From contig NZ_JADDXT010000002.1 in assembly GCF_015330165.1 (NCBI RefSeq), positions 1,812,663 through 1,876,662 on the forward strand: a DNA stretch of 64,000 bases. The letters are read 5' to 3'. The DNA comes from Zobellia roscoffensis (GTDB taxonomy: Bacteria > Bacteroidota > Bacteroidia > Flavobacteriales > Flavobacteriaceae). How positions within the stretch are numbered: the first letter of the stretch is position 1; each line of letters opens with the position of its first letter. The notes under the pieces were generated by a model. The model was not told the DNA's origin. It saw nothing but the letters and a program-made list of their open reading frames with translations, and ran no database searches. Both the position numbers and the translations under genes were made by a program. Positions 4,383-34,876 of this stretch are shown piece by piece.

Positions 4383-5525
4383 TTAATATCCAAAATCAGC
4401 TTTCAGAGCATCAATTTTCTCTAGGGCCATTTCTTTGGTCAAGAAATCTATTTCATCCATGGCGAAAGCTTTTTCAAAGGTTTTGAACGCTTTCTTAGGT
4501 TCGCCTAATTGCTCATAGTATTCGCCTTCAAAATAAAAGCCCATCATAGTTTCAGGGAATTCCTTTTTACAAAGGTCTGAAAGCGGTTTTAAAGACTCGG
4601 TATCTTCTTTTTTTCGGCATGCAGCATAAACGGCCATGATATCGTTAAGGTCAACCGTTTTTTTAAATCCGAATAAATCTTCAATACTCTGGTATTTGTT
4701 TTCTAAGTACTGAAAAACAGGATCTTCTGAAGTTAGTATTTGTTCTTTATATTCTTTTGGGCTAATGGGTTTGAACATACCAAAAATGTTATCAAAAGCT
4801 TTTCCTAAACCGTAAGTGGCTATTGAAATATGGTCAGCACCATCATATTGTTCGAAGTTATAATGAAGTGATTCTTTGTCAATAGCTTTAATAGCTTGGT
4901 TCATTTGAAGAATTCGAGGTGTGTCTTTGTTTTTTTCGGCCTCAACAATCAATTGGTAAAAAATTTGCTTGTCAAAAGCTGCTAAACGAGCCGGTACTCT
5001 AGTTTCCATCTCTGGAGCTAAAGTAGGAGAGATATTTACATACGCATTGAATAGTGAATTTTCTTTAAAAAGCCAGTAGTTGCTGAAGTTGGCTGTTATG
5101 TCATAACCAACAATCATTTTAAATGGCGCAGTGCTATAGTTAAGGTCAAGGTAGGGTATGATTTCCATTCCTAGAAATTCAAAAAACTTTTTTGCCTTTT
5201 CAGAAGGAAGTCCAGAGTCTGGTTCAAAAGCGCAATCGTCAAGACGAATACTTTTTTTACTTTGTTCTACACCAACCACAATACTAGCGGGCATACCATG
5301 AAACTTATGGTAAAATTTAGCGTTGGCCACAACTTGATCAAAGAGATATTCTCCGTCTAGGACAACAATTAGAGGGTACTTTTTTTCTTTGTCGTAATCT
5401 TCTGGGAAATAATATTTTACATCGCGTCGCTCTTGTAGTTTGAACGATTCAAAAATTTCTTGTGTGACTTGTGCGTTAAGACTAGCGCATAGTAGGCATG
5501 CAAAAAAAGTAAGTTTGCGTAACAT
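4383..5525 (-). CDS. Secreted alpha/beta-hydrolase (putative esterase family) with a C-terminal TPR-like tail.
   Basis: Signal peptide MLRKLTFFACLLCASLNAQ. The YPLIVVLDGEYLF motif is typical of PF00756-type esterases. The C-terminus resembles helical repeats. Confidence 0.5.
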   Translation of the reverse strand: MLRKLTFFACLLCASLNAQVTQEIFESFKLQERRDVKYYFPEDYDKEKKYPLIVVLDGEYLFDQVVANAKFYHKFHGMPASIVVGVEQSKKSIRLDDCAFEPDSGLPSEKAKKFFEFLGMEIIPYLDLNYSTAPFKMIVGYDITANFSNYWLFKENSLFNAYVNISPTLAPEMETRVPARLAAFDKQIFYQLIVEAEKNKDTPRILQMNQAIKAIDKESLHYNFEQYDGADHISIATYGLGKAFDNIFGMFKPISPKEYKEQILTSEDPVFQYLENKYQSIEDLFGFKKTVDLNDIMAVYAACRKKEDTESLKPLSDLCKKEFPETMMGFYFEGEYYEQLGEPKKAFKTFEKAFAMDEIDFLTKEMALEKIDALKADFGY

Positions 5526-24216: not shown

Positions 24217-24277
24217 TTTAGATTCAACTTTTAAGGTAACACATAGTATTTCGCGCAAAGATGCTACATTTGGGGAT

Positions 24278-25429
24278 ATGGATGACTTCCCTAAAAAACT
24301 GACCAAAAAACTGAATGATAGAAGTGATGCAAATGCATTACGAAGTTTGCCAGCACTTAATAAACTGACAGATTTTTCATCGAATGATTATTTAGGGCTT
24401 TCTCGTAACCAAACCATTTCAGGGCAAGTACAACATCTATTAAAAAAGCATAATGCTTTTGAAAATGGAGCAACGGGTTCACGTTTGCTTTCTGGAAATC
24501 ATTCACTTTATGAAACATTAGAAGCTACACTTTGTACATTTCACCAAGCAGAAGCTGCTTTGGTTTTTAACTCGGGTTACGACGCCAATATAGGGTTTTT
24601 TAGCTCCGTTCCACAAAGGGGGGATATTGTTTTATTTGATGAATTTATTCATGCAAGTGTTCGTGACGGCATACGAATGGGTAACGCCAAAAGTTATAAG
24701 TTTAAACATAACAATCTTGAAGATTTACTAATAAAATGTGAGTCTGAACGCAGTCGAAACTTGACGGATGCAGAAATATATGTAGTAACCGAATCTGTTT
24801 TTTCTATGGATGGCGATACTCCAGATTTAAAAGCACTTGCTGAAATTTGTGAGTCTCAAAATTGTCGTTTGGTTATAGATGAAGCTCATGCTGTGGGTGT
24901 TTTTGGAAAACATGGTGAAGGTTTAGTGCAAGAGTTAAACATACAAGACAAAGTTTTTGCACGTTTGGTGACCTTTGGGAAAGGTATTGGCTGTCACGGA
25001 GCTGCAATTTTGGGCAACATCGATTTAAAATCATATTTGGTAAATTTTGCCCGTAGTTTTATCTATACTACAGGGCTTCCACCACATTCTGTAGCTTCGG
25101 TTTTATCTGCTTATAATTATTTAGAAAGTCAGGTTGATGAGGTGGAGGTACTAAAACGTAATATTTCATATTTCAACCGTAAATTAGTGGATTTAAGTCT
25201 GAGTTCAAGTTTTATTCCTAGTAATTCTACCATTCATTGTTGTTTGGTTTCTGGCAATGAAAGGGTACGCGTTATGGGAAAACTAATTCAAGAAAAAGGG
25301 TTTGATGTACGACCTATTCAATCTCCTACAGTGCCTGAAGGTCAAGAAAGATTACGCATATGTCTTCATAGTTTTAATATGAAACAAGAGATTGATAATT
25401 TGCTAAACGCAGTGATTGCTGTCATCTAA
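24278..25429 (+). CDS. bioF: 8-amino-7-oxononanoate synthase (class II aminotransferase).
   Basis: FSSNDYLGLS, a PLP-lysine region (TFGKGIG...) and the bio gene neighbourhood. Confidence 0.85.
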   Translation: MDDFPKKLTKKLNDRSDANALRSLPALNKLTDFSSNDYLGLSRNQTISGQVQHLLKKHNAFENGATGSRLLSGNHSLYETLEATLCTFHQAEAALVFNSGYDANIGFFSSVPQRGDIVLFDEFIHASVRDGIRMGNAKSYKFKHNNLEDLLIKCESERSRNLTDAEIYVVTESVFSMDGDTPDLKALAEICESQNCRLVIDEAHAVGVFGKHGEGLVQELNIQDKVFARLVTFGKGIGCHGAAILGNIDLKSYLVNFARSFIYTTGLPPHSVASVLSAYNYLESQVDEVEVLKRNISYFNRKLVDLSLSSSFIPSNSTIHCCLVSGNERVRVMGKLIQEKGFDVRPIQSPTVPEGQERLRICLHSFNMKQEIDNLLNAVIAVI

Positions 25430-25430
25430 T

Positions 25431-25814
25431 ATGAAAGAGAAATTTTATACCATAGCTTCTTTTGAGTACCCTGCGGATGTTCAGATATTGAAAGGAAAAC
25501 TAGAATCTGAAGGAATTTCTGTTTTTCTTAGAGATGAACATACCTTAAATTCAGACCCTATAATCAGTAATGCTATTGGCGGGGTAAAACTACAAGTATA
25601 TACAGAAGACAAAGAAAAGGCTATTGAGATATACAATGAAATAAGGGCATATGCCATAGATGACAATGGTAATTTGATTGTATGCCCTAACTGTAAAATG
25701 CAAAAATCTGAGGTGTATTATAACAGAAAAGGAATTTTATATAAACTTTTTCCTTTTTTTGAAGAAAAAAAATACAAATGCCTACATTGTAACATGATAA
25801 CAAAACCTCAATAG
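25431..25814 (+). CDS. DUF2007-like small protein with a C-terminal C4 zinc ribbon.
   Basis: ORF 25416..25814. The ATG at 25431 sits 2 nt after the bioF stop. CPNC...CLHC zinc ribbon. The stop abuts the bioD start (25816). Confidence 0.5.
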   Translation: MKEKFYTIASFEYPADVQILKGKLESEGISVFLRDEHTLNSDPIISNAIGGVKLQVYTEDKEKAIEIYNEIRAYAIDDNGNLIVCPNCKMQKSEVYYNRKGILYKLFPFFEEKKYKCLHCNMITKPQ

Positions 25815-25815
25815 A

Positions 25816-26433
25816 ATGCAGCAAATTTTTGTGACAGGAATATCAACTGAAGTAGGTAAAACAATAGCTTCCGCAATTATTGCAGAGGCCCTTGAAGCGG
25901 ATTATTGGAAACCGGTGCAAGCAGGTGATTTAGATAATACAGATAGTGATAAGGTAAAATCCCTAATTTCTAATGATAAGACAGTAATACACAAAAGTAG
26001 TTATGAGTTAAAGACTCCTATGAGTCCGCATGCAGCAGCAGAAAGAGATGGCGTTACAATAGACCGACTAGAAATCATTGAGCCAGAAACGGATAATGCT
26101 TTGGTAATTGAAGGAGCTGGTGGTGTTCTGGTGCCTTTGAGTAAGGATGATACAGTTTTGGATATCATTATGCCAACCTATCATGTAGTCGTGGTATCTA
26201 GACACTATTTAGGAAGTATTAATCATACACTCCTAACTATTGGTTGGTTGCAACAGAAGGGGTACGATGTTTCTGTATTGTTTAGTGGTAAGGAAAATCC
26301 CGAAACTGAAAGTATTATTCTTCACAAAACCAAAGTGTCTTCAATTGGTCGTATAGATGAAGAAGCTGTTTTTGATAAAGCTGTTATTAAGAAATATGCT
26401 GATAAATTCAGATCTGCACTAAAGTCTCTTTAG
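25816..26433 (+). CDS. bioD: Dethiobiotin synthetase.
   Basis: IFVTGISTEVGKT P-loop and the typical BioD length. Confidence 0.9.
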   Translation: MQQIFVTGISTEVGKTIASAIIAEALEADYWKPVQAGDLDNTDSDKVKSLISNDKTVIHKSSYELKTPMSPHAAAERDGVTIDRLEIIEPETDNALVIEGAGGVLVPLSKDDTVLDIIMPTYHVVVVSRHYLGSINHTLLTIGWLQQKGYDVSVLFSGKENPETESIILHKTKVSSIGRIDEEAVFDKAVIKKYADKFRSALKSL

Positions 26434-26440
26434 TCTCTTT

Positions 26441-28108
26441 TCAATCAATTCGCACAAGAGCCAAATCAACCTTACTTATAGTAAAATTGTAAAGTGATTT
26501 TCTGCCTTCTAGATTTTGTTGGTTAAAAATATAATAACCAGGAAGTTCACATTGGTCTGTTTTTGAAACAATTGCTTTACGGGACATTTCTAAATAAGCT
26601 GCCGTCTCATATAATTTAAATGGCGTTTGAATGTGTGTGCGCAAATCTTCTTGCGTAAAAATGTAAAGCGGAGCTTCATTACCAATTATTTCGTAAATCT
26701 CGTTTGCATAAACCTGATGTGGTGCGCTAGATGAAGTTAATGACTTTAGTGGTAATGCTACATGGTCAAAGGCCAATCTACATACTACAATAAAACCAAT
26801 TACAAATAAGTGTTTAACGTAACCAATGGTTTTGTGATGATAAATCCATATAATCAATAACAGTAAGCCAAAAAGAGGCATAGTAAATTTTAGGTGTGGT
26901 AAAATCGAAAAATAACCAATAAACGGAATGGCAAAACAAGCGATGAGAGCAATTGTAATAATCACCTTAAAAAAGGTATGGTATGCTTTATGCATCCAAT
27001 TTTTTTCTTCGAGTTGAAGAAATAATGGATACGTAAGGATAGTAATTACTATGGGAAAAAACATATACGTATAACGTATTCTAGCTCCAGGGGAAATCCA
27101 ATATACTAGGAAATTGGCCAAAAAAGTAATGACCAGAAAAATCAAATAGGGTTGATTTTTAATCTTTTGTAACTGCTCTTTTTTCCAAATGAATAAAAGG
27201 AATAAAGTTGCGGGAAAAATGACGGCAATAAAATTTAAAGGAAAAAAGAAAAGATGTTTTATAATTCCGCTAAAACGGTCACTTAATAAAGTTCGTTGAT
27301 GTGTGAGGCCCCACATTTTGGTGATATACTGCTGTAAATCTTCATAACTAGCATAGGTGTAAAAATAGAAATATACGGCAGCTGCAGCTAGAGTGACGCT
27401 AAAAATATGTCGCCAAGAAAAGAGTCGTTTGAGGTCTTTTTTGTACAAAAGATAAGCGCCTAGTGTAATGATTATGAAGGCGAAAGAAGCAAAACCTTTA
27501 GTTAAAAATGCGAGTGTAATAAAAAAATAGGAGCATCCGAATAATAGAAGAAATCGCTTTTGTTGGTAAAAATGGAAAATGCTGAAAACACTTAGTACCA
27601 CTAATAATGAATAGAAAATATCTATTTCAGCAGTTACGCAGAAATAAAAATAAAGATCGGCACATACCAAATAATATAGCGCGCTCAATATGGCAAATTT
27701 TGGCCCAACATATTTTTTAGCCATATAAAAAGTGAGAATACCTGTCAGTAAGAATGAAAATGCTGAAGGAAATCGAAGTGCAAAGGTGTTGTAGCCAAAG
27801 ATTTTAACGCTTCCGGCAAGAATAATATTCCATAAAGGTGGGTGGTCATAAAAAGTTTCATTGAGAATGGTGGTGACAACAAAATTTTCGTTGAACAACA
27901 TTTCTAAAGCTACCAGTGCTCGTCGTGGTTCCTCGGTGTGTAATGGTGCTAGGTGCAGATTGTAAAAAAGGGATACCGTATAGAGAATAAGAATCAAAAA
28001 CGATAGCCAATATATATTTTTGGTATTGGTCGGTTGTAAAAATCCGGTATCAAAAAACTTCATGTTTCTTAGATTTTTTCTAAACCAAAGATGATCATAA
28101 TACTTCAA
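26441..28108 (-). CDS. ArnT/PMT-like (GT83/GT39 family) polytopic glycosyltransferase that uses polyprenyl-phosphate-sugar donors.
   Basis: More than 10 TM helices. N-terminal loop HTEEPRRALVALEML (DE/RR motif). The start could be the internal ATG at 28063 (MKFFDTGF). Confidence 0.65.
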   Translation of the reverse strand: MKYYDHLWFRKNLRNMKFFDTGFLQPTNTKNIYWLSFLILILYTVSLFYNLHLAPLHTEEPRRALVALEMLFNENFVVTTILNETFYDHPPLWNIILAGSVKIFGYNTFALRFPSAFSFLLTGILTFYMAKKYVGPKFAILSALYYLVCADLYFYFCVTAEIDIFYSLLVVLSVFSIFHFYQQKRFLLLFGCSYFFITLAFLTKGFASFAFIIITLGAYLLYKKDLKRLFSWRHIFSVTLAAAAVYFYFYTYASYEDLQQYITKMWGLTHQRTLLSDRFSGIIKHLFFFPLNFIAVIFPATLFLLFIWKKEQLQKIKNQPYLIFLVITFLANFLVYWISPGARIRYTYMFFPIVITILTYPLFLQLEEKNWMHKAYHTFFKVIITIALIACFAIPFIGYFSILPHLKFTMPLFGLLLLIIWIYHHKTIGYVKHLFVIGFIVVCRLAFDHVALPLKSLTSSSAPHQVYANEIYEIIGNEAPLYIFTQEDLRTHIQTPFKLYETAAYLEMSRKAIVSKTDQCELPGYYIFNQQNLEGRKSLYNFTISKVDLALVRID

Positions 28109-28139: not shown

Positions 28140-29441
28140 ATGAAGAAGGCAAACACATCAGAAGTCCTAGCGACGGAAAGTCTATCCATTAGAGACAAAA
28201 AACATCTATGGCACCCATTAACACAGCATAAACTGCATCCAGAAATGCTGGGTATAGTTAAGGCTAAGGGTGCTGTTCTGTATGATGAGAACGGCAAGGA
28301 TTATATAGATGGTATTGCCTCTTGGTACACTAGCGCATATGGCCATTGTAACGATTATATAATCGATAAGGTGTATGCTCAAATGCAAAAGTTGGATCAA
28401 GTGGTTTTTAGTGGTTTTACTCATGAACCTGCGGTTAAATTATCTGAAGAACTCATAAAAGTATTACCTGAAAACCAAGAAAAACTATTCTTTTCCGATA
28501 ATGGTTCCACAGCTACTGAAATCGGAATTAAAATGGCATTACAATACCATTTTAATCAAGGTAGGAAGCGTAAAACCATGCTGGCTTTTGAAGAAGGGTT
28601 TCATGGAGACACATTTGGGGCCATGTCTGTTTCGGGACTATCGGTTTATAACGGGCCTTTCGAAGAGTTTTTTATTGATGTAGAGCGTGTTGATGTACCT
28701 ACTGATGAAAATATAGAGGCTATACTTTCTCGGTTAGAAGTAAGGTTACAACGAAACGATATAGCAGGATTCATTTACGAACCTTTGGTGCAAGGTGCGG
28801 CAGCTATGAAAATGCATAAAGCCGAAAACCTGAACCGCATTTTAAAGCTCTTGAAGAAGCATGGCATACTCACCATTGCCGATGAGGTAATGACAGGTTT
28901 TGGTAAAACCGGAAAACCTTTTGCTTCGGAATATATTGAAACCAAACCAGACATCATTTGCATGTCTAAGGCCCTAACGGCTGGTTTAATTCCTATGGCG
29001 ATCACCAGTTGCTCACAAGAGGTTTACGATGCATTTTATAGTGATGATATGGCAAAGGGGCTTTTCCATGGCCATACCTATTCCGGAAACCCATTAGCTT
29101 GCACCGCAGCTTTAGCCGGGTTAGAATTGTTGCAAACACCAGAAATTCAAAACAGTATACAAAGAGTAATCGCTTCGCACGAAGAGTTCGATTCTATAAT
29201 AAAGAACCACCCCAAAGTTGCGCGTACAAGGCAATGTGGAATTATTTATGCATTGGACTTAAATGTGAAAATGGAACGTTACGGGAATTTACGTGACCAA
29301 ATGTTCAAGCATTTTATGGATAATGGCGTATTTTTGCGCCCCCTTGGGAGTACCATTTATATTTCTGCACCTTATGTTATTACTGATGAACAGTTGCAAA
29401 AAATATATACTACCATCGAAGATTTACTGAACAGTATCTAA
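28140..29441 (+). CDS. bioA: Adenosylmethionine--8-amino-7-oxononanoate aminotransferase.
   Basis: LWHPLTQ N-terminal motif, class III aminotransferase fold and bio context. Confidence 0.93.
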   Translation: MKKANTSEVLATESLSIRDKKHLWHPLTQHKLHPEMLGIVKAKGAVLYDENGKDYIDGIASWYTSAYGHCNDYIIDKVYAQMQKLDQVVFSGFTHEPAVKLSEELIKVLPENQEKLFFSDNGSTATEIGIKMALQYHFNQGRKRKTMLAFEEGFHGDTFGAMSVSGLSVYNGPFEEFFIDVERVDVPTDENIEAILSRLEVRLQRNDIAGFIYEPLVQGAAAMKMHKAENLNRILKLLKKHGILTIADEVMTGFGKTGKPFASEYIETKPDIICMSKALTAGLIPMAITSCSQEVYDAFYSDDMAKGLFHGHTYSGNPLACTAALAGLELLQTPEIQNSIQRVIASHEEFDSIIKNHPKVARTRQCGIIYALDLNVKMERYGNLRDQMFKHFMDNGVFLRPLGSTIYISAPYVITDEQLQKIYTTIEDLLNSI

Positions 29442-29450
29442 ATTTTCCGC

Positions 29451-30635
29451 TTGAAAGAACCAATATCCATTACCGCAATAGGCTCAGTTTCCCCATTGGG
29501 AAGGACTTCTGAAGAAACATGGGAGAACTACCTTAAAGACGACCATTTTTTTAGTCAGACTGAATTTGGAGGGGAGATGGAATGGATAGCTTCTTTATCC
29601 AGCGAATCCAGGCAAGAAATTGAGTTGCTTAGAAATTCGGATCAAAAATATAAGAGCCTTGATAATACGGTCTTATTTGCGCTTTATGCCTCAAGAGAAG
29701 CTATAAAAAAAGCTGGATGGAAAACAGGAGATGATTTTGGAGTTAATATGGGATCCTCACGTGGGGCAACGGCACTTTTTGAAAAATACCATCAGGAATT
29801 TTTAGAGAATAATAGAACGGCAACCTTAAGTTCGCCAACCACAACGTTGGGAAATATTTCCTCATGGATAGCACATGATTTAAAAACGAAAGGCCCTGAA
29901 ATCTCACATTCCATAACCTGTTCTACAGCCCTTCATTCTGTTTTAAATGGAGTCGCGTGGATTAGAAGCGGTATGGCGGACAAATTTTTGGTAGGTGGAA
30001 GCGAGGCACCGTTAACGCCCTTTACCATTGCCCAAATGAAGGCGCTAAAAATATATTCGCAATATAAAACGGACATCAGTTCAAAGAATGGAGAAGGATA
30101 TCCTAACCGAGCATTAGATTTCGAAAAGGAAAGGAACATGATGGTTCTAGGGGAGGGCGCTTCTGTCATGTGTCTGGAAAAAAGGGTTTCATCCAAAACT
30201 TTGGCCGTTATAGAAGGTATAGGTTATGCCACTGAACCTTTACGCCATAATATTTCCATTTCTACAGATGCGGAGTGTTTTCAAAGCTCCATGAAAATGG
30301 CTTTGGGAGAAATAAATCCAGAAGAAGTTGATGCGATTGTCATGCATGCACCAGGTACAATTAAGGGTGATATATCTGAGTATAAGGCCATTGAAAAAGT
30401 TTTTTGTAACAAGTTGCCCTTTTTGACTACAAATAAATGGAAAGTAGGGCATACTTTTGGAGCGTCGGGAGCGTTAAGCATAGAATTAGCGGTCTTGATG
30501 ATACAGCATCAACACGAAATAAAAGTGCCTTTTGTCACCTATACTTCATCTCCGAAAAAACTTGAAAAAGTACTCGTAAATGCAGTGGGTTTTGGGGGTA
30601 ACGCAGTTTCAATTTTGTTGTCTCGGAATTTATAG
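29451..30635 (+). CDS. Beta-ketoacyl-ACP synthase I/II-like condensing enzyme (TTG start), embedded in the biotin cluster.
   Basis: Catalytic Cys in ITCSTALHS, His in MHAPGT and His in KWKVGHTFGASGA (a Cys-His-His elongating-KAS triad). 394 aa. Begins 10 nt after bioA. Confidence 0.8.
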   Translation: MKEPISITAIGSVSPLGRTSEETWENYLKDDHFFSQTEFGGEMEWIASLSSESRQEIELLRNSDQKYKSLDNTVLFALYASREAIKKAGWKTGDDFGVNMGSSRGATALFEKYHQEFLENNRTATLSSPTTTLGNISSWIAHDLKTKGPEISHSITCSTALHSVLNGVAWIRSGMADKFLVGGSEAPLTPFTIAQMKALKIYSQYKTDISSKNGEGYPNRALDFEKERNMMVLGEGASVMCLEKRVSSKTLAVIEGIGYATEPLRHNISISTDAECFQSSMKMALGEINPEEVDAIVMHAPGTIKGDISEYKAIEKVFCNKLPFLTTNKWKVGHTFGASGALSIELAVLMIQHQHEIKVPFVTYTSSPKKLEKVLVNAVGFGGNAVSILLSRNL

Positions 30636-30702: not shown

Positions 30703-31281
30703 ATGGAACTAGGGTTCGAAACGATGACTTTATTTGAGAAAATCTATTGGGTGACCGCTGTGGTCGGATCCATTTTTCTTATTATCCTCTTAATCATGAC
30801 CTTTATTGGGGGTGAGATGGATGATATTGACGGTGATGTTGATGCAGAAATAGATGCGGATTCCGGTATTGAGTTTCAGTTTTTATCCTTTAAAAATTTA
30901 GTGGGCTTTTTTACCATTTTCGGATGGTCTGGTATTGCTTGTTTAGACGCGGGCATGTCTACCATGGTCACTGTGCTCATATCCGTAATATGTGGTCTGT
31001 TGATGATGGTTGCCATGGCCTCTTTATTTTATTATTTAGGAAAATTGCAGAGTAGTGGCACGTTAAGATTGAAAAATGCATTGAACCAGATAGGTGAGGT
31101 GTATTTGACTATTGGTGCCAATCGTAAAAGTATAGGAAAGGTAAGTATCAACGTTCAAGGCACTTTACGTGAACTTGAAGCCCTTACCAGTGCTGATATA
31201 GACTTAGTGCAGGGTAATGTTGTCATCGTAAAAGAAGTTACCGCAAACGGAATTTTAATTGTTGAACCCATAAATAAATAA
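30703..31281 (+). CDS. YqiJ/NfeD-like membrane protein with a C-terminal OB-fold.
   Basis: TM helix, acidic stretch (EMDDIDGDVDAEIDADSG), two TM helices and a C-terminal beta-rich OB-like domain. Followed 5 nt later by a flotillin gene (the classic yqiJ-yqiK pairing). Confidence 0.6.
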   Translation: MELGFETMTLFEKIYWVTAVVGSIFLIILLIMTFIGGEMDDIDGDVDAEIDADSGIEFQFLSFKNLVGFFTIFGWSGIACLDAGMSTMVTVLISVICGLLMMVAMASLFYYLGKLQSSGTLRLKNALNQIGEVYLTIGANRKSIGKVSINVQGTLRELEALTSADIDLVQGNVVIVKEVTANGILIVEPINK

Positions 31282-31285
31282 CCAA

Positions 31286-32716
31286 ATGTTACTAGTAGCC
31301 CTACAACTGGCGGGAAGCGCTTCGTTGCTTGCCATTGGCTTTGCCATTCTCTTCTTTTTTATAATCATCATATCTTTTATAAGGCGTTACAAACGTTGTC
31401 CTTCAGATCGTATTTTGGTCGTTTACGGAAAGGTTGGTAGCGGAAATTCTGCTCGTTGTATTCACGGTGGAGCTTCCTTTATTTGGCCTGTAATCCAAGA
31501 TTATGAGTATCTAGATTTAACACCTATTTCTATAGAGGTAAACTTGGTTAATGCATTAAGTAAGCAGAACATTCGTGTAAATGTGCCTTCTCGTTTTACT
31601 ATTGGTATTTCTACGGAGCCGGGTATTATGCAAAATGCGGCAGAGCGTTTGTTAGGTCAAGGTTTAGAGCAGATCCAAGAACTTGCTAAAGAAATTATTT
31701 TCGGACAACTTCGTTTGGTTGTGGCATCAATGGATATTGAAGAAATTAATAACGACAGAGATAAGTTTCTAACGAACATTTCCAACAGTGTAGAATCGGA
31801 ATTGAAGAAAGTAGGTCTAAAACTGATCAACGTAAACATTACGGATATTGTTGATGAGTCCGGGTATATAGAAGCTTTAGGTAAAGAAGCGGCAGCACAC
31901 GCTATAAACGCGGCCAGGAAATCTGTTGCTGAGAAAACTAGAGATGGTTCTATTGGTGAGGCAAACGCGGTCCAAGATGAGCGTACGCAAGTTGCAGCGG
32001 CAAATGCCCAAGCGGTAGAAGGGGAAAATGTTGCAAAGATTAATGTAGCCAATTCGGATTCGTTACGTCGTCAAAGAGAGGCGGAAGCAGAAAGAACGGC
32101 AATTGCGGCAGAAAAAGTACAAGCGGCAAAAGCTTTGGAAGAGTCCTATGCAGCAGAGAAAGATGCGGAAATTGCGAGAGCGGAGCGTGTTCGTAGTTCG
32201 CAAATGGCAGATATTGTTGTGCCTGCGGAAATAGACAAGAAGAAAGTTGAAATTGATGCCGAAGCGGAAGCGGAAATGATTCGTAGAAGAGCGAAAGGTG
32301 AAGCGGACGCAATTCTGTTCAAAGCACAGGCGGAAGCACAAGGTCTGTTTGAAATTCTGACCAAGCAAGCACAAGGTCTCGATGAGATTGTAAAAGCTGC
32401 AGGCAATAATCCTCAAGATGCAGTTCTGTTATTGGTTGCCGATAAGTTGCCCGAGTTGGTAAAAACACAAGCCGAAGCTATCAAGAATATTAAAATAGAT
32501 AAGGTTACCGTTTGGGATTCCGGAGCAAAAACAGCAGATGGAAAAGGCTCTACCGCTAATTTCATTTCGGGAATGTACAAGTCGGTTCCGCCGTTACAAG
32601 AAATGTTTAATATGGCCGGAATGCAATTGCCGGAATATCTAAAGGGGAAAGATATTCCTGAAGGTACAGATGATTCAAAGTCTGTGGATTCGGAAAAGAA
32701 AGTTGACAAGGAGTAA
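31286..32716 (+). CDS. Flotillin-like SPFH/band-7 protein (YqiK/FloA type).
   Basis: N-terminal TM, SPFH domain and a long Ala/Glu-rich coiled-coil (EAEAERTAIAAEKVQAAKALEESYAAEKDAEIARAE...). Confidence 0.85.
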   Translation: MLLVALQLAGSASLLAIGFAILFFFIIIISFIRRYKRCPSDRILVVYGKVGSGNSARCIHGGASFIWPVIQDYEYLDLTPISIEVNLVNALSKQNIRVNVPSRFTIGISTEPGIMQNAAERLLGQGLEQIQELAKEIIFGQLRLVVASMDIEEINNDRDKFLTNISNSVESELKKVGLKLINVNITDIVDESGYIEALGKEAAAHAINAARKSVAEKTRDGSIGEANAVQDERTQVAAANAQAVEGENVAKINVANSDSLRRQREAEAERTAIAAEKVQAAKALEESYAAEKDAEIARAERVRSSQMADIVVPAEIDKKKVEIDAEAEAEMIRRRAKGEADAILFKAQAEAQGLFEILTKQAQGLDEIVKAAGNNPQDAVLLLVADKLPELVKTQAEAIKNIKIDKVTVWDSGAKTADGKGSTANFISGMYKSVPPLQEMFNMAGMQLPEYLKGKDIPEGTDDSKSVDSEKKVDKE

Positions 32717-32736: not shown

Positions 32737-32772
32737 AGAAGCCTGTTGAATATATTTCAACAGGCTTTTTTC
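32737..32772 (+). terminator. Rho-independent terminator after the flotillin gene.
   Basis: AAGCCTGTTGAA-TATAT-TTCAACAGGCTT perfect 12 bp stem followed by T6. Confidence 0.75.
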
Positions 32773-32853: not shown

Positions 32854-33948
32854 ATGAGCGAAACAAGACACAACTGGACGAAAGAAGAGATTCTTGATAT
32901 TTACAATACACCTTTAATGGAGTTGCTTTATGATGCGGCTACTATCCATAGAAAACATCATGATCCAAATACGGTTCAGGTGTCTACCTTACTTTCAATA
33001 AAAACAGGCGGTTGCCCTGAAGACTGTGGGTATTGTCCGCAAGCGGCACGGTACCACACAGATATTGAAGGGAATGATCTTATGAAAGTTTCGCACGTAA
33101 AAGCGCAGGCTTTAAGGGCAAAAGCTTCCGGTAGCTCGCGAGTTTGTATGGGTGCAGCATGGCGGAATGTAAAGGATGGTCCTGAGTTTGATCAGGTGTT
33201 GGAAATGGTGCGTACCATTAACAAGCTAGATATGGAGGTTTGTTGTACGTTGGGTATGTTAACCGAAAATCAAGCACACCGTTTAGCTGAAGCCGGTCTT
33301 TATGCTTATAACCACAATTTAGATACATCAGAAGATTATTATAAAGATGTTATTTCTACACGTGCTTTTGAGGATCGTCTAGAAACAATAGATAATGTTC
33401 GTAAGAGCAATGTAACAGTTTGTAGCGGTGGTATCATCGGTATGGGTGAGGCTATTGAAGATCGCGCCGGAATGTTGGTTGCTTTGGCAAGTTTGAATCC
33501 TCAGCCAGAATCTGTACCTATTAATTCATTAGTGGCCGTAGAAGGAACTCCAATGGAAGATATGGAGCCAGTTTCTATTTGGGATATGATTCGTATGGTA
33601 GCAACCACGCGTATTGTTATGCCGGAAACGCAAGTGCGTTTATCTGCTGGTCGTACGGAAATGAGTAGAGAAGGACAAGCCATGTGCTTCTTTGCAGGTG
33701 CTAATTCCATTTTCGCGGGAGACAAATTGTTGACCACTCCTAATCCAGATGTAAACGAGGATATGGAAATGTTCAAAATGTTAGGTCTTAATCCTCAAAA
33801 ACCATTCACTAAAGTTTCACAACCAAAAACGGTAGAAGCTGCTGAATCTAAGTTGCAACCTTTGGGTGAAAAACCAAAATGGACTCGACCTGGACATACT
33901 ATCGAGAGAAACGAAGAGGCAAAGGCGAAAAGCAAAGTGATAGATTAA
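32854..33948 (+). CDS. bioB: Biotin synthase (radical SAM) with a roughly 45 aa C-terminal extension.
   Basis: CPEDCGYCPQ radical-SAM cluster and the YNHNLDTS motif. Confidence 0.95.
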   Translation: MSETRHNWTKEEILDIYNTPLMELLYDAATIHRKHHDPNTVQVSTLLSIKTGGCPEDCGYCPQAARYHTDIEGNDLMKVSHVKAQALRAKASGSSRVCMGAAWRNVKDGPEFDQVLEMVRTINKLDMEVCCTLGMLTENQAHRLAEAGLYAYNHNLDTSEDYYKDVISTRAFEDRLETIDNVRKSNVTVCSGGIIGMGEAIEDRAGMLVALASLNPQPESVPINSLVAVEGTPMEDMEPVSIWDMIRMVATTRIVMPETQVRLSAGRTEMSREGQAMCFFAGANSIFAGDKLLTTPNPDVNEDMEMFKMLGLNPQKPFTKVSQPKTVEAAESKLQPLGEKPKWTRPGHTIERNEEAKAKSKVID

Positions 33949-34015: not shown

Positions 34016-34876
34016 TTGAAGCTAACAGCCATTCCAAGGGTATCTACAATCTCCAAGGAAGATTTTTTAGAACACTATTTTAAACCGCAGAAACCTGTGG
34101 TGATAGAACGTGCTATAGAAAATTGGCCTGCTTTTAAAAAGTGGAATCTTGATTATATTCGTGAAGTTGCAGGAGATAAAATTGTACCATTGTATGATGA
34201 CCGTCCGGTTAACCATGAAGATGGTTTTAACGAGCCACATGCAAAAATGAAAATGTCCGAGTACGTAGATTTGTTAAAGGCAAAGCCTACTAAGTACCGT
34301 ATTTTTCTTTGGAACGTTTTAAAGGAAGTGCCGCAGCTTCAAAAAGATTATGAGTTTCCTGATTTTGGACTCACGTTAAAAAAGAAGCTGCCCATGCTCT
34401 TTTTTGGGGGTAGGGATTCATTTACTTTCATGCACTATGATATTGATATGTCCAATATTTTCCATTTTCATTTCGAAGGTAAAAAGGAGTGTATTCTATT
34501 CGCGCCATCTGAAACTAAGTACTTGTACAAAGTCCCTAATTCACTTATTACGCACGAAAGTATAGATTTTGAAAATCCTGATTTTGAAAAATGGCCTGCG
34601 CTACAGCAAGCCAGCGGTTTCAAAACCGATCTGAACCATGGAGAAGTGCTGTTCATGCCAGAAGGTTATTGGCATTATATGAAGTATAAAACCCCAGGAT
34701 TTTCTATGAGCCTTAGGTCTTGGCCAAAGAACCCGATAAATTTTGCAGAGGGGCTTTATAATGTTTTCATAATGCGTAATTTTGATATTTTAATGAGAAA
34801 AATTCGAGGCCAGAAATGGATAGATCAAAAGAATCGAAGGGCAATAGAGCGAACATCTAAAATAGCCTCCAAATAA
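34016..34876 (+). CDS. JmjC/cupin-like domain protein (putative 2-oxoglutarate/Fe(II) oxygenase).
   Basis: FMHYDID...H motif region and beta-helix cupin topology. 286 aa. Confidence 0.6.
   Translation: MKLTAIPRVSTISKEDFLEHYFKPQKPVVIERAIENWPAFKKWNLDYIREVAGDKIVPLYDDRPVNHEDGFNEPHAKMKMSEYVDLLKAKPTKYRIFLWNVLKEVPQLQKDYEFPDFGLTLKKKLPMLFFGGRDSFTFMHYDIDMSNIFHFHFEGKKECILFAPSETKYLYKVPNSLITHESIDFENPDFEKWPALQQASGFKTDLNHGEVLFMPEGYWHYMKYKTPGFSMSLRSWPKNPINFAEGLYNVFIMRNFDILMRKIRGQKWIDQKNRRAIERTSKIASK

Follow-up and report, generated by a model that had tools for sequence, protein, structure and literature searches.

How does a bacterium whose biotin (bio) gene cluster encodes the four late enzymes of the pathway obtain the pimelate moiety on which those enzymes act? 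This opening stage of biotin synthesis varies and has so far been mapped only in part, and the question is raised by a 64,000-nucleotide (nt) stretch of the genome of Zobellia roscoffensis (Flavobacteriaceae; NCBI RefSeq assembly GCF_015330165.1, contig NZ_JADDXT010000002.1, positions 1,812,663 to 1,876,662 of the forward strand), hereafter the window. In this window a ketoacyl synthase (KAS) gene of the KAS I/II type directly follows bioA, and an earlier note, made from the DNA sequence, had proposed its product as a candidate pimeloyl-moiety synthase. The proposal is supported by the linkage of the gene to bioA, by scores unlike those of FabF, and by a remodelled acyl pocket with an intact catalytic set. 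We consider it likely that the gene serves the synthesis of the biotin precursor; a mechanism in which a glutaryl primer with a free carboxylate is extended to pimeloyl acyl carrier protein (pimeloyl-ACP) is the one that we favour, with somewhat less confidence.

The open reading frame (ORF) is as the earlier note described it. The TTG start codon of the ketosynthase lies 9 nt after the bioA stop codon and in the same frame as bioA, and no terminator-like site was found between the two genes. Both ketoacyl synthase domains were identified in the protein with Pfam (N-terminal PF00109, 89 bits, E = 4e-25; C-terminal PF02801, 58 bits, E = 2e-15), whereas no ACP_syn_III domain was detected with the same database. 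TTG is the sole start that preserves the conserved N-terminus, and homologous genes at 90 loci begin with TTG (49), ATG (34) or GTG (7); a weak, conserved TTG or GTG start would fit a cofactor-pathway enzyme that is deliberately translated at a low level. The assignment of bioF, bioD, bioA and bioB in the window also stands: the products of the last three score above the NCBIfam equivalog cut-offs, and the BioF model is the best match for the first (Table 1).

Is the enzyme a housekeeping FabF (KAS II) that happens to lie in a bio cluster? Against the FabF equivalog TIGR03150 it reaches 159 bits, below the threshold of 493.75, and the remaining NCBIfam ketosynthase equivalogs also score far under their cut-offs; judged by these scores, it is neither the housekeeping FabF nor an orthologue of FabF. 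Its closest solved sequence relatives are FabF enzymes (~100 bits), and an AlphaFold model built from a 37-sequence family alignment (predicted local distance difference test score 91.5; predicted template modelling [TM] score 0.93) matches FabF structures with TM scores of 0.84–0.88 at 21–25% identity. The ketosynthase thus combines KAS domains and a FabF-like fold with the Cys-His-His set, Lys and gating Phe of the elongating class, all of which it shares with E. coli FabF (PDB 2GFW and 6OKG), but the FabF gene is found in a fab cluster and the ketosynthase gene in a bio operon. When 1.8 billion cluster representatives were searched exhaustively, E ≤ 1e-30 was reached by 381 clusters (50% identity), and the top 150 representatives by score matched with at least 236 bits and 37–67% identity; on this showing, the ketosynthase is a member of a large, distinct family. 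No curated family describing it was found in the libraries searched, and a Z. roscoffensis protein at 97% identity carries only a generic domain name in NCBI.

The position of the gene is conserved well beyond Zobellia. Scanning with a single genome for each species returned at least 508 relatives of the ketosynthase among the matches listed. The 80 best relatives, each from a different Flavobacteriaceae species (among them Zobellia, Maribacter, Flagellimonas, Cellulophaga, Arenibacter, Tenacibaculum, Algibacter, and many Flavobacterium, e.g., F. psychrophilum), together with eight loci from other look-ups, make up 88 ketosynthase-centred loci. The preceding recognised same-strand gene is bioA in 83 of these 88, and bioF was found in 79. 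When loci were instead centred on bioA, the ketosynthase was downstream of it in 37 of the 39 metagenome loci that have at least 1.5 kb of downstream flank. Conservation of the bioA-KAS adjacency, which the earlier note had named as a check across Flavobacteriia, is borne out for Flavobacteriaceae by these counts, and absence of the gene from related bio clusters, which had been set beforehand as a refuting test, is not what was seen. At one exceptional metagenome locus (L109:9384-13968) the place of the ketosynthase after bioA is taken by small unknown ORFs as far as the contig end, and at another (L113) the ketosynthase lies ~6 kb downstream of bioA; the bioA-ketosynthase junction appears to tolerate insertions.

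The linkage extends to distant members of the family. Those with 38–45% identity terminate compact operons, either bioB-bioF-bioD-bioA-KAS (L007/L008, L089, and L090) or bioF-bioD-bioA-KAS (L004, L093, and L092); stop and start codons in these operons often overlap. The operons are on metagenome contigs, some of which carry Por_Secre_tail genes of the type IX secretion system kind, which suggests that they belong to Bacteroidota.

These data bear on the possibility that the enzyme has no role in biotin synthesis, being a specialised ketosynthase of lipid or secondary metabolism that is merely syntenic with the bio genes, and perhaps tied to the NfeD-like and flotillin genes that follow it in the window. 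Such a pair is found downstream of the ketosynthase at 31 of the 88 loci, and two remote family members, L005/L006 and L091, both on short contigs, are not beside bio genes; in L091 (865-2331) a family member is preceded by an NfeD and FloA pair, with no homology between that pair and the one in the window by BLASTP. However, most loci lack NfeD and flotillin, and we regard the pair as variable passengers; the linkage to bioA persists down to 38% identity and through varied gene orders, among them operons of five genes and nothing else whose stop and start codons overlap. A polar pocket closed by Arg (see below) would moreover be unsuited to a fatty acyl chain. We therefore rate a function outside biotin synthesis as very unlikely.

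What would the enzyme condense? The family was aligned with E. coli FabF and FabB (the FabF reference being 100% identical to PDB 6OKG), and residues were counted on 37 sequences and then again on 374 (Table 1). The intact Cys-His-His set reported by the earlier note (CST, HAPGT, and GHTFGASG motifs) is confirmed and aligns to the catalytic residues of FabF, with HAPGT in place of the HGTST of FabF; all of the catalytic residues and the gating Phe are invariant in the family. With this set complete, the ketosynthase is expected to function as a decarboxylating condensing enzyme. The acyl pocket is another matter: FabF has a hydrophobic acyl channel with an Ile108-Phe202 back gate, and in the ketosynthase family Ile108 is replaced by Arg in every sequence and Ser, Thr, or Gln takes the place of apolar residues at a minimum of seven pocket positions. 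The I108-F202 gate of FabF lies at about C7-C8 of the bound acyl chain, and an I108F mutant of FabF mainly elongates C6, with priming limited to C6 (PMC9006962). By alignment to FabF, the invariant Arg at the gate and the channel lined with hydroxyl and amide groups would shut the pocket to long chains, and the guanidinium group of Arg104 would bring a positive charge to the expected location of the terminal carboxylate of a C5 diacid bound to the catalytic Cys. Such a polar, cationic pocket would be what a dicarboxylate primer needs, and it argues against methyl-ester (BioC) chemistry, the purpose of which is the masking of charge.

We propose that a short acyl primer with an omega-carboxylate would be loaded on Cys157, most likely a glutaryl (C5) group from glutaryl-coenzyme A (glutaryl-CoA) or glutaryl-ACP, with its carboxylate held by Arg104 and a ring of Ser, Thr, and Gln residues that takes the place of the hydrophobic pocket and back gate of FabF. 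His299, His334, and Lys329 would decarboxylate malonyl-ACP, and the condensation would yield 3-oxopimeloyl-ACP, which the housekeeping enzymes FabG, FabZ, and FabI would reduce to pimeloyl-ACP for BioF, as after BioZ. The methyl-ester disguise conferred by BioC and removed by BioH would then be unnecessary. In this scheme we infer the identity of the primer, its carrier (CoA or ACP), completion of the cycle by housekeeping enzymes, and the genome-wide absence of bioC and bioH; taken as a whole, we hold the glutaryl-primed mechanism to be moderately probable.

BioZ provides the nearest parallel. In both cases a condensing enzyme is the only pimelate-specific gene of the operon (PMC7645780; PMC8024396; PMC12625853), and the slot of bioZ after bioA in the alpha-proteobacterial bioBFDAZ operon is the slot of the ketosynthase in bioBFDA-KAS operons (PMC7645780). 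The BioZ reaction (a glutaryl thioester plus malonyl-ACP to 3-oxopimeloyl-ACP) matches the chemistry proposed here, and both enzymes would have to accommodate a charged omega-carboxylate. For BioZ, the addition of a ketosynthase alone suffices, as the E. coli enzymes for fatty acid synthesis of type II (FAS II) complete the free-carboxylate C7 cycle (PMC7645780); addition of a ketosynthase alone fits this precedent because, sporadic short-chain dehydrogenases aside, no ACP, reductase, dehydratase, methyltransferase, or esterase is clustered with the flavobacterial gene in the 2.29 Mb searched around 143 bio loci. The two enzymes differ in kind, however: BioZ is FabH-like with a Cys-His-Asn triad, whereas the ketosynthase is FabF-like with a Cys-His-His-Lys set; BioZ grips the C5 carboxylate with two Ser residues, whereas the candidates in the ketosynthase are the invariant Arg and the Ser, Thr, and Gln residues; and BioZ is alpha-proteobacterial, whereas the ketosynthase is from Bacteroidota. 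By analogy of position and proposed chemistry the ketosynthase may work like BioZ, yet by triad and fold class it is not a BioZ.

Several points weigh against a glutaryl-primed role in biotin synthesis, among them the distant family members noted above that are not beside bio genes. KAS I/II enzymes normally prime from acyl-ACP, and the use of glutaryl-CoA would be atypical for the class; for the alternative carrier, we know of no route to glutaryl-ACP. In addition, some Flavobacteriaceae also possess BioE (PMC12915131), another means of supplying the pimelate moiety.

Could the same enzyme instead build the whole chain? In a two-round route free of methyl esters, the ketosynthase would take malonyl (C3) and then glutaryl (C5) primers and, with housekeeping FabG, FabZ, and FabI, would make pimeloyl-ACP from three malonyl units, so that lysine catabolism would not be needed. 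A genetic precedent exists in Desulfovibrio vulgaris, where the FabF-type ketosynthase DVU2563 is encoded among bioF, bioA, bioD, and bioB in an organism without bioC and bioH; non-esterified dicarboxylate intermediates were proposed for that pathway, and its authors predicted less hydrophobic active sites (PMC10102598). The pocket of the flavobacterial enzyme is polar throughout its course between Cys157 (Thr156, Thr192, and Gln195) and Arg104, and no dedicated gene for the supply of glutaryl-CoA was found clustered with the ketosynthase at the 88 loci. On the other hand, the Desulfovibrio cluster depends on an ACP, a reductase, and dehydratases of its own, and such a set was not seen at the 143 related loci of this study; malonyl on the active-site Cys would, from ketosynthase chemistry, tend to decarboxylate; and Arg104, at the C7-C8 gate, would be far from a C3 carboxylate and is placed for C5. 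We consider the two-round route unlikely, and retain glutaryl priming as the preferred mechanism. The likeness to DVU2563, which is drawn here from the published description, does qualify the suggestion in the earlier note of a KAS I/II-fold solution to pimelate synthesis: the solution itself is supported, but it is not wholly unprecedented, given the Desulfovibrio ketosynthase (PMC10102598). The two systems are nevertheless distinguishable, since DVU2563 has dedicated ACP, FabG-like, and FabZ-like partners that the flavobacterial gene lacks, and the reported occurrence of the DVU2563 pathway is limited to anaerobes from a few phyla.

The search for partner genes addresses the established alternative, the pathway of BioC and BioH (or BioG, BioK, BioJ, or BioV), which has the same product, pimeloyl-ACP, and the same dependence on the reductive enzymes of FAS II, but which requires methyltransferase and esterase partners. 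Pfam and NCBIfam searches of ~30 window ORFs (with ~15 others of at least 150 amino acids [aa] outside the scan) identified no bioC, bioH, bioG, bioW, or bioI, in agreement with the earlier note for the ORFs scanned. The only esterase-like ORF among them (4383-5525; PF00756) was rejected as a BioH candidate, being 19 kb away and not BioH-like. With tblastn, using E. coli BioC, BioH, AcpP, FabG, and FabZ as queries (all but FabG validated against NCBIfam), no BioC, BioH, ACP, or FabZ homologues were found in 2.29 Mb of flanks around 143 bio loci, and FabG-like short-chain dehydrogenases, found with the query that was not validated, were present at only 3-4 of the 143. All-vs-all clustering of ORFs from the 88 loci likewise revealed no recurrent methyltransferase or esterase family; the recurring neighbours are syntenic housekeeping genes only (e.g., RecX, RNase E/G, and ATP synthase). 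A ligase encoded 3' of the ketosynthase in L092 was considered as a dicarboxylate activator and rejected as a bona fide acetate-CoA ligase.

A helper role in the BioC pathway would have the ketosynthase dedicated to the methyl esters of malonyl- and glutaryl-ACP, with bioC and an esterase gene elsewhere in the genome. The searches covered the window and flanks, leaving room elsewhere in the genome; esterases in the role of BioH are notoriously diverse and could be missed; and one Tenacibaculum locus has an alpha/beta hydrolase gene inside the cluster, although we rejected this hydrolase as a BioH, as it is proline-iminopeptidase-like and lineage-specific. Against such a role, a neutral methyl ester needs neither an invariant Arg nor a polar pocket, ordinary FabF and FabB already elongate methyl esters in E. 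coli (PMC9006962), and the 143 clusters and their flanks contain neither a BioC or BioH homologue nor a recurrent methyltransferase or esterase. We thus find the helper role quite improbable; as predicted from the aligned residues, the pocket chemistry of the ketosynthase argues for a free carboxylate, unlike the methyl ester of BioC-BioH.

The remaining known routes differ in chemistry. BioE, a ferritin-like diiron oxygenase of Weeksellaceae (PMC12704756), and the P450 BioI resemble the ketosynthase in being encoded by a single extra gene beside bioFD/BA in Flavobacteriales and, on the role proposed here, in providing the pimeloyl thioester, but they oxidatively cleave long-chain acyl thioesters and have unrelated folds, whereas the ketosynthase would build the chain by Claisen condensation. 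The pimelate routes surveyed in papers of December 2025 are BioC-BioH with its variants, BioI-BioW, BioZ, and BioE only, and the full-text literature, with subscription journals mostly outside its coverage, yielded no description of a biotin ketosynthase of the FabF type from Bacteroidota. We interpret the enzyme as a dedicated pimelate ketosynthase that resembles a known kind but is set apart from both BioZ and the DVU2563 system. On balance, we hold it rather more probable than not that this Arg-gated, KAS II-fold family alone is the pimelate-arm enzyme of most Flavobacteriaceae and of several other Bacteroidota lineages; priming on an omega-carboxy-acyl thioester with a free carboxylate, it would do without BioC and BioH and would constitute an independent route to pimeloyl-ACP, convergent with that of BioZ, in the chief biotin producers of the sea.

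Other features of the cluster vary among relatives (Table 1). A gene for a DUF2007-like small protein lies between bioF and bioD at 53 of the 88 loci. The membrane glycosyltransferase gene between bioD and bioA is on the opposite strand and divides the bio cluster of the window into separate transcription units; a sequence-similar PMT_2 homologue occupies this slot in five loci only (Zobellia, one Maribacter, and Pareuzebyella), and Flagellimonas (L003) also has a PMT_2-family gene there. A 554-aa protein encoded upstream of the ketosynthase in L005 was rejected as a relative of the window PMT_2 protein, to which it is unrelated. The NfeD-like and flotillin genes probably share a transcript with bioA and the ketosynthase gene, and the strong hairpin after the flotillin gene is the probable end of that transcript; at many other loci bioB directly follows the ketosynthase.

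In the window, bioB is paired with a gene for a Cupin_8/JmjC-like protein. This gene lies 3' of bioB at 55 of the ketosynthase-centred loci, and also in L004 and L071, and it accompanies bioB also at loci that have bioB apart from bioFDA-KAS; the compact bioBFDA-KAS operons are without it. Human JMJD5 is the best solved relative of the protein (106 bits), and the protein shows an HxD...H motif, marking it as a putative 2-oxoglutarate oxygenase that may be an accessory to BioB.

No clear shared bio operator was recognised upstream of bioF, bioA, and bioB, where little was found besides promoter-like TAnnTTTG motifs. These lie just upstream of bioF (24265-24272), bioA, and bioB, and related loci have them too; we take the TAnnTTTG form to be the -7 promoter element of Bacteroidota. 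Among them are TACATTTG before bioF, TATTTTTG before bioB (35 of 65 loci), and ATCTTTGCA before bioA (25 of 83 loci), and the word AACAATAAT/TTATTGTT also recurs upstream of bioF.

Table 1. Genes and sites of the bio region in the window, and residues of the ketosynthase aligned to E. coli FabF, with conservation as the number of family sequences carrying the residue.
Feature	Positions	Strand	Remarks
bioF	24278..25429	+	TIGR00858 best match, 336 bits, under cut-off of 426
DUF2007-like small protein	25416..25814	+	132 aa; C-terminal 4-Cys ribbon (CPNC...CLHC); overlaps end of bioF
bioD	25816..26433	+	TIGR00347, 116 bits (cut-off 83)
PMT_2-family membrane glycosyltransferase	26441..28108	-	555 aa; between bioD and bioA
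bioA	28140..29441	+	TIGR00508, 529 bits (cut-off 405)
KAS I/II-fold ketosynthase	29451..30635	+	TTG start, 394 aa; candidate condensing enzyme for the pimelate arm
NfeD-like gene	30703..31281	+	downstream of ketosynthase
Flotillin/Band_7 gene	31286..32716	+	downstream of NfeD-like gene
Probable terminator	32739..32767		strong 12-bp GC-rich hairpin; flanking T-runs on both strands
bioB	32854..33948	+	TIGR00433, 404 bits (cut-off 225)
Cupin_8/JmjC-like protein	34016..34876	+	Pfam; paired with bioB
Arg104	29760..29762	+	FabF back-gate Ile108; Arg in 37/37 and 374/374
Cys157	29919..29921	+	FabF Cys163, catalytic; TCST motif; 374/374
His299	30345..30347	+	FabF His303, catalytic; HAPGT motif; 374/374
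Lys329	30435..30437	+	FabF Lys335, catalytic; KWKVGH motif (30435..30452); 374/374
His334	30450..30452	+	FabF His340, catalytic; GHTFGASG/KWKVGH motif; 374/374
Phe381	30591..30593	+	FabF gating Phe400; GFGG motif; 374/374
FabF Gly107 to Ser			acyl channel; 362/374
FabF Leu111 to Thr			acyl channel; 367/374
FabF Val134 to Ser			acyl channel; 373/374
FabF Ile138 to Thr			acyl channel; 370/374
FabF Ala162 to Thr (Thr156)			acyl channel; 370/374
FabF Gly198 to Thr (Thr192)			acyl channel; 357/374
FabF Gly201 to Gln (Gln195)			acyl channel; 373/374
FabF Phe202 to Met (Met196)			back gate; 329/374

Earlier solutions to the pimelate problem (BioZ in 2020 and BioE in 2025) were notable findings and have been regarded as candidate drug targets. 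Flavobacteriia are among the main biotin producers of the ocean (PMC9561691), and they are usually scored for the four late biotin genes only. If the role proposed here is correct, the pimelate gap would be closed for hundreds of species (at least 508 relatives among the matches listed), and pathway predictions that call Flavobacteriia incomplete would be corrected. The ketosynthase would also exemplify a KAS II scaffold turned from lipid to dicarboxylate priming, largely via a back-gate residue, and would offer a compact part for the engineering of pimelate and biotin production.

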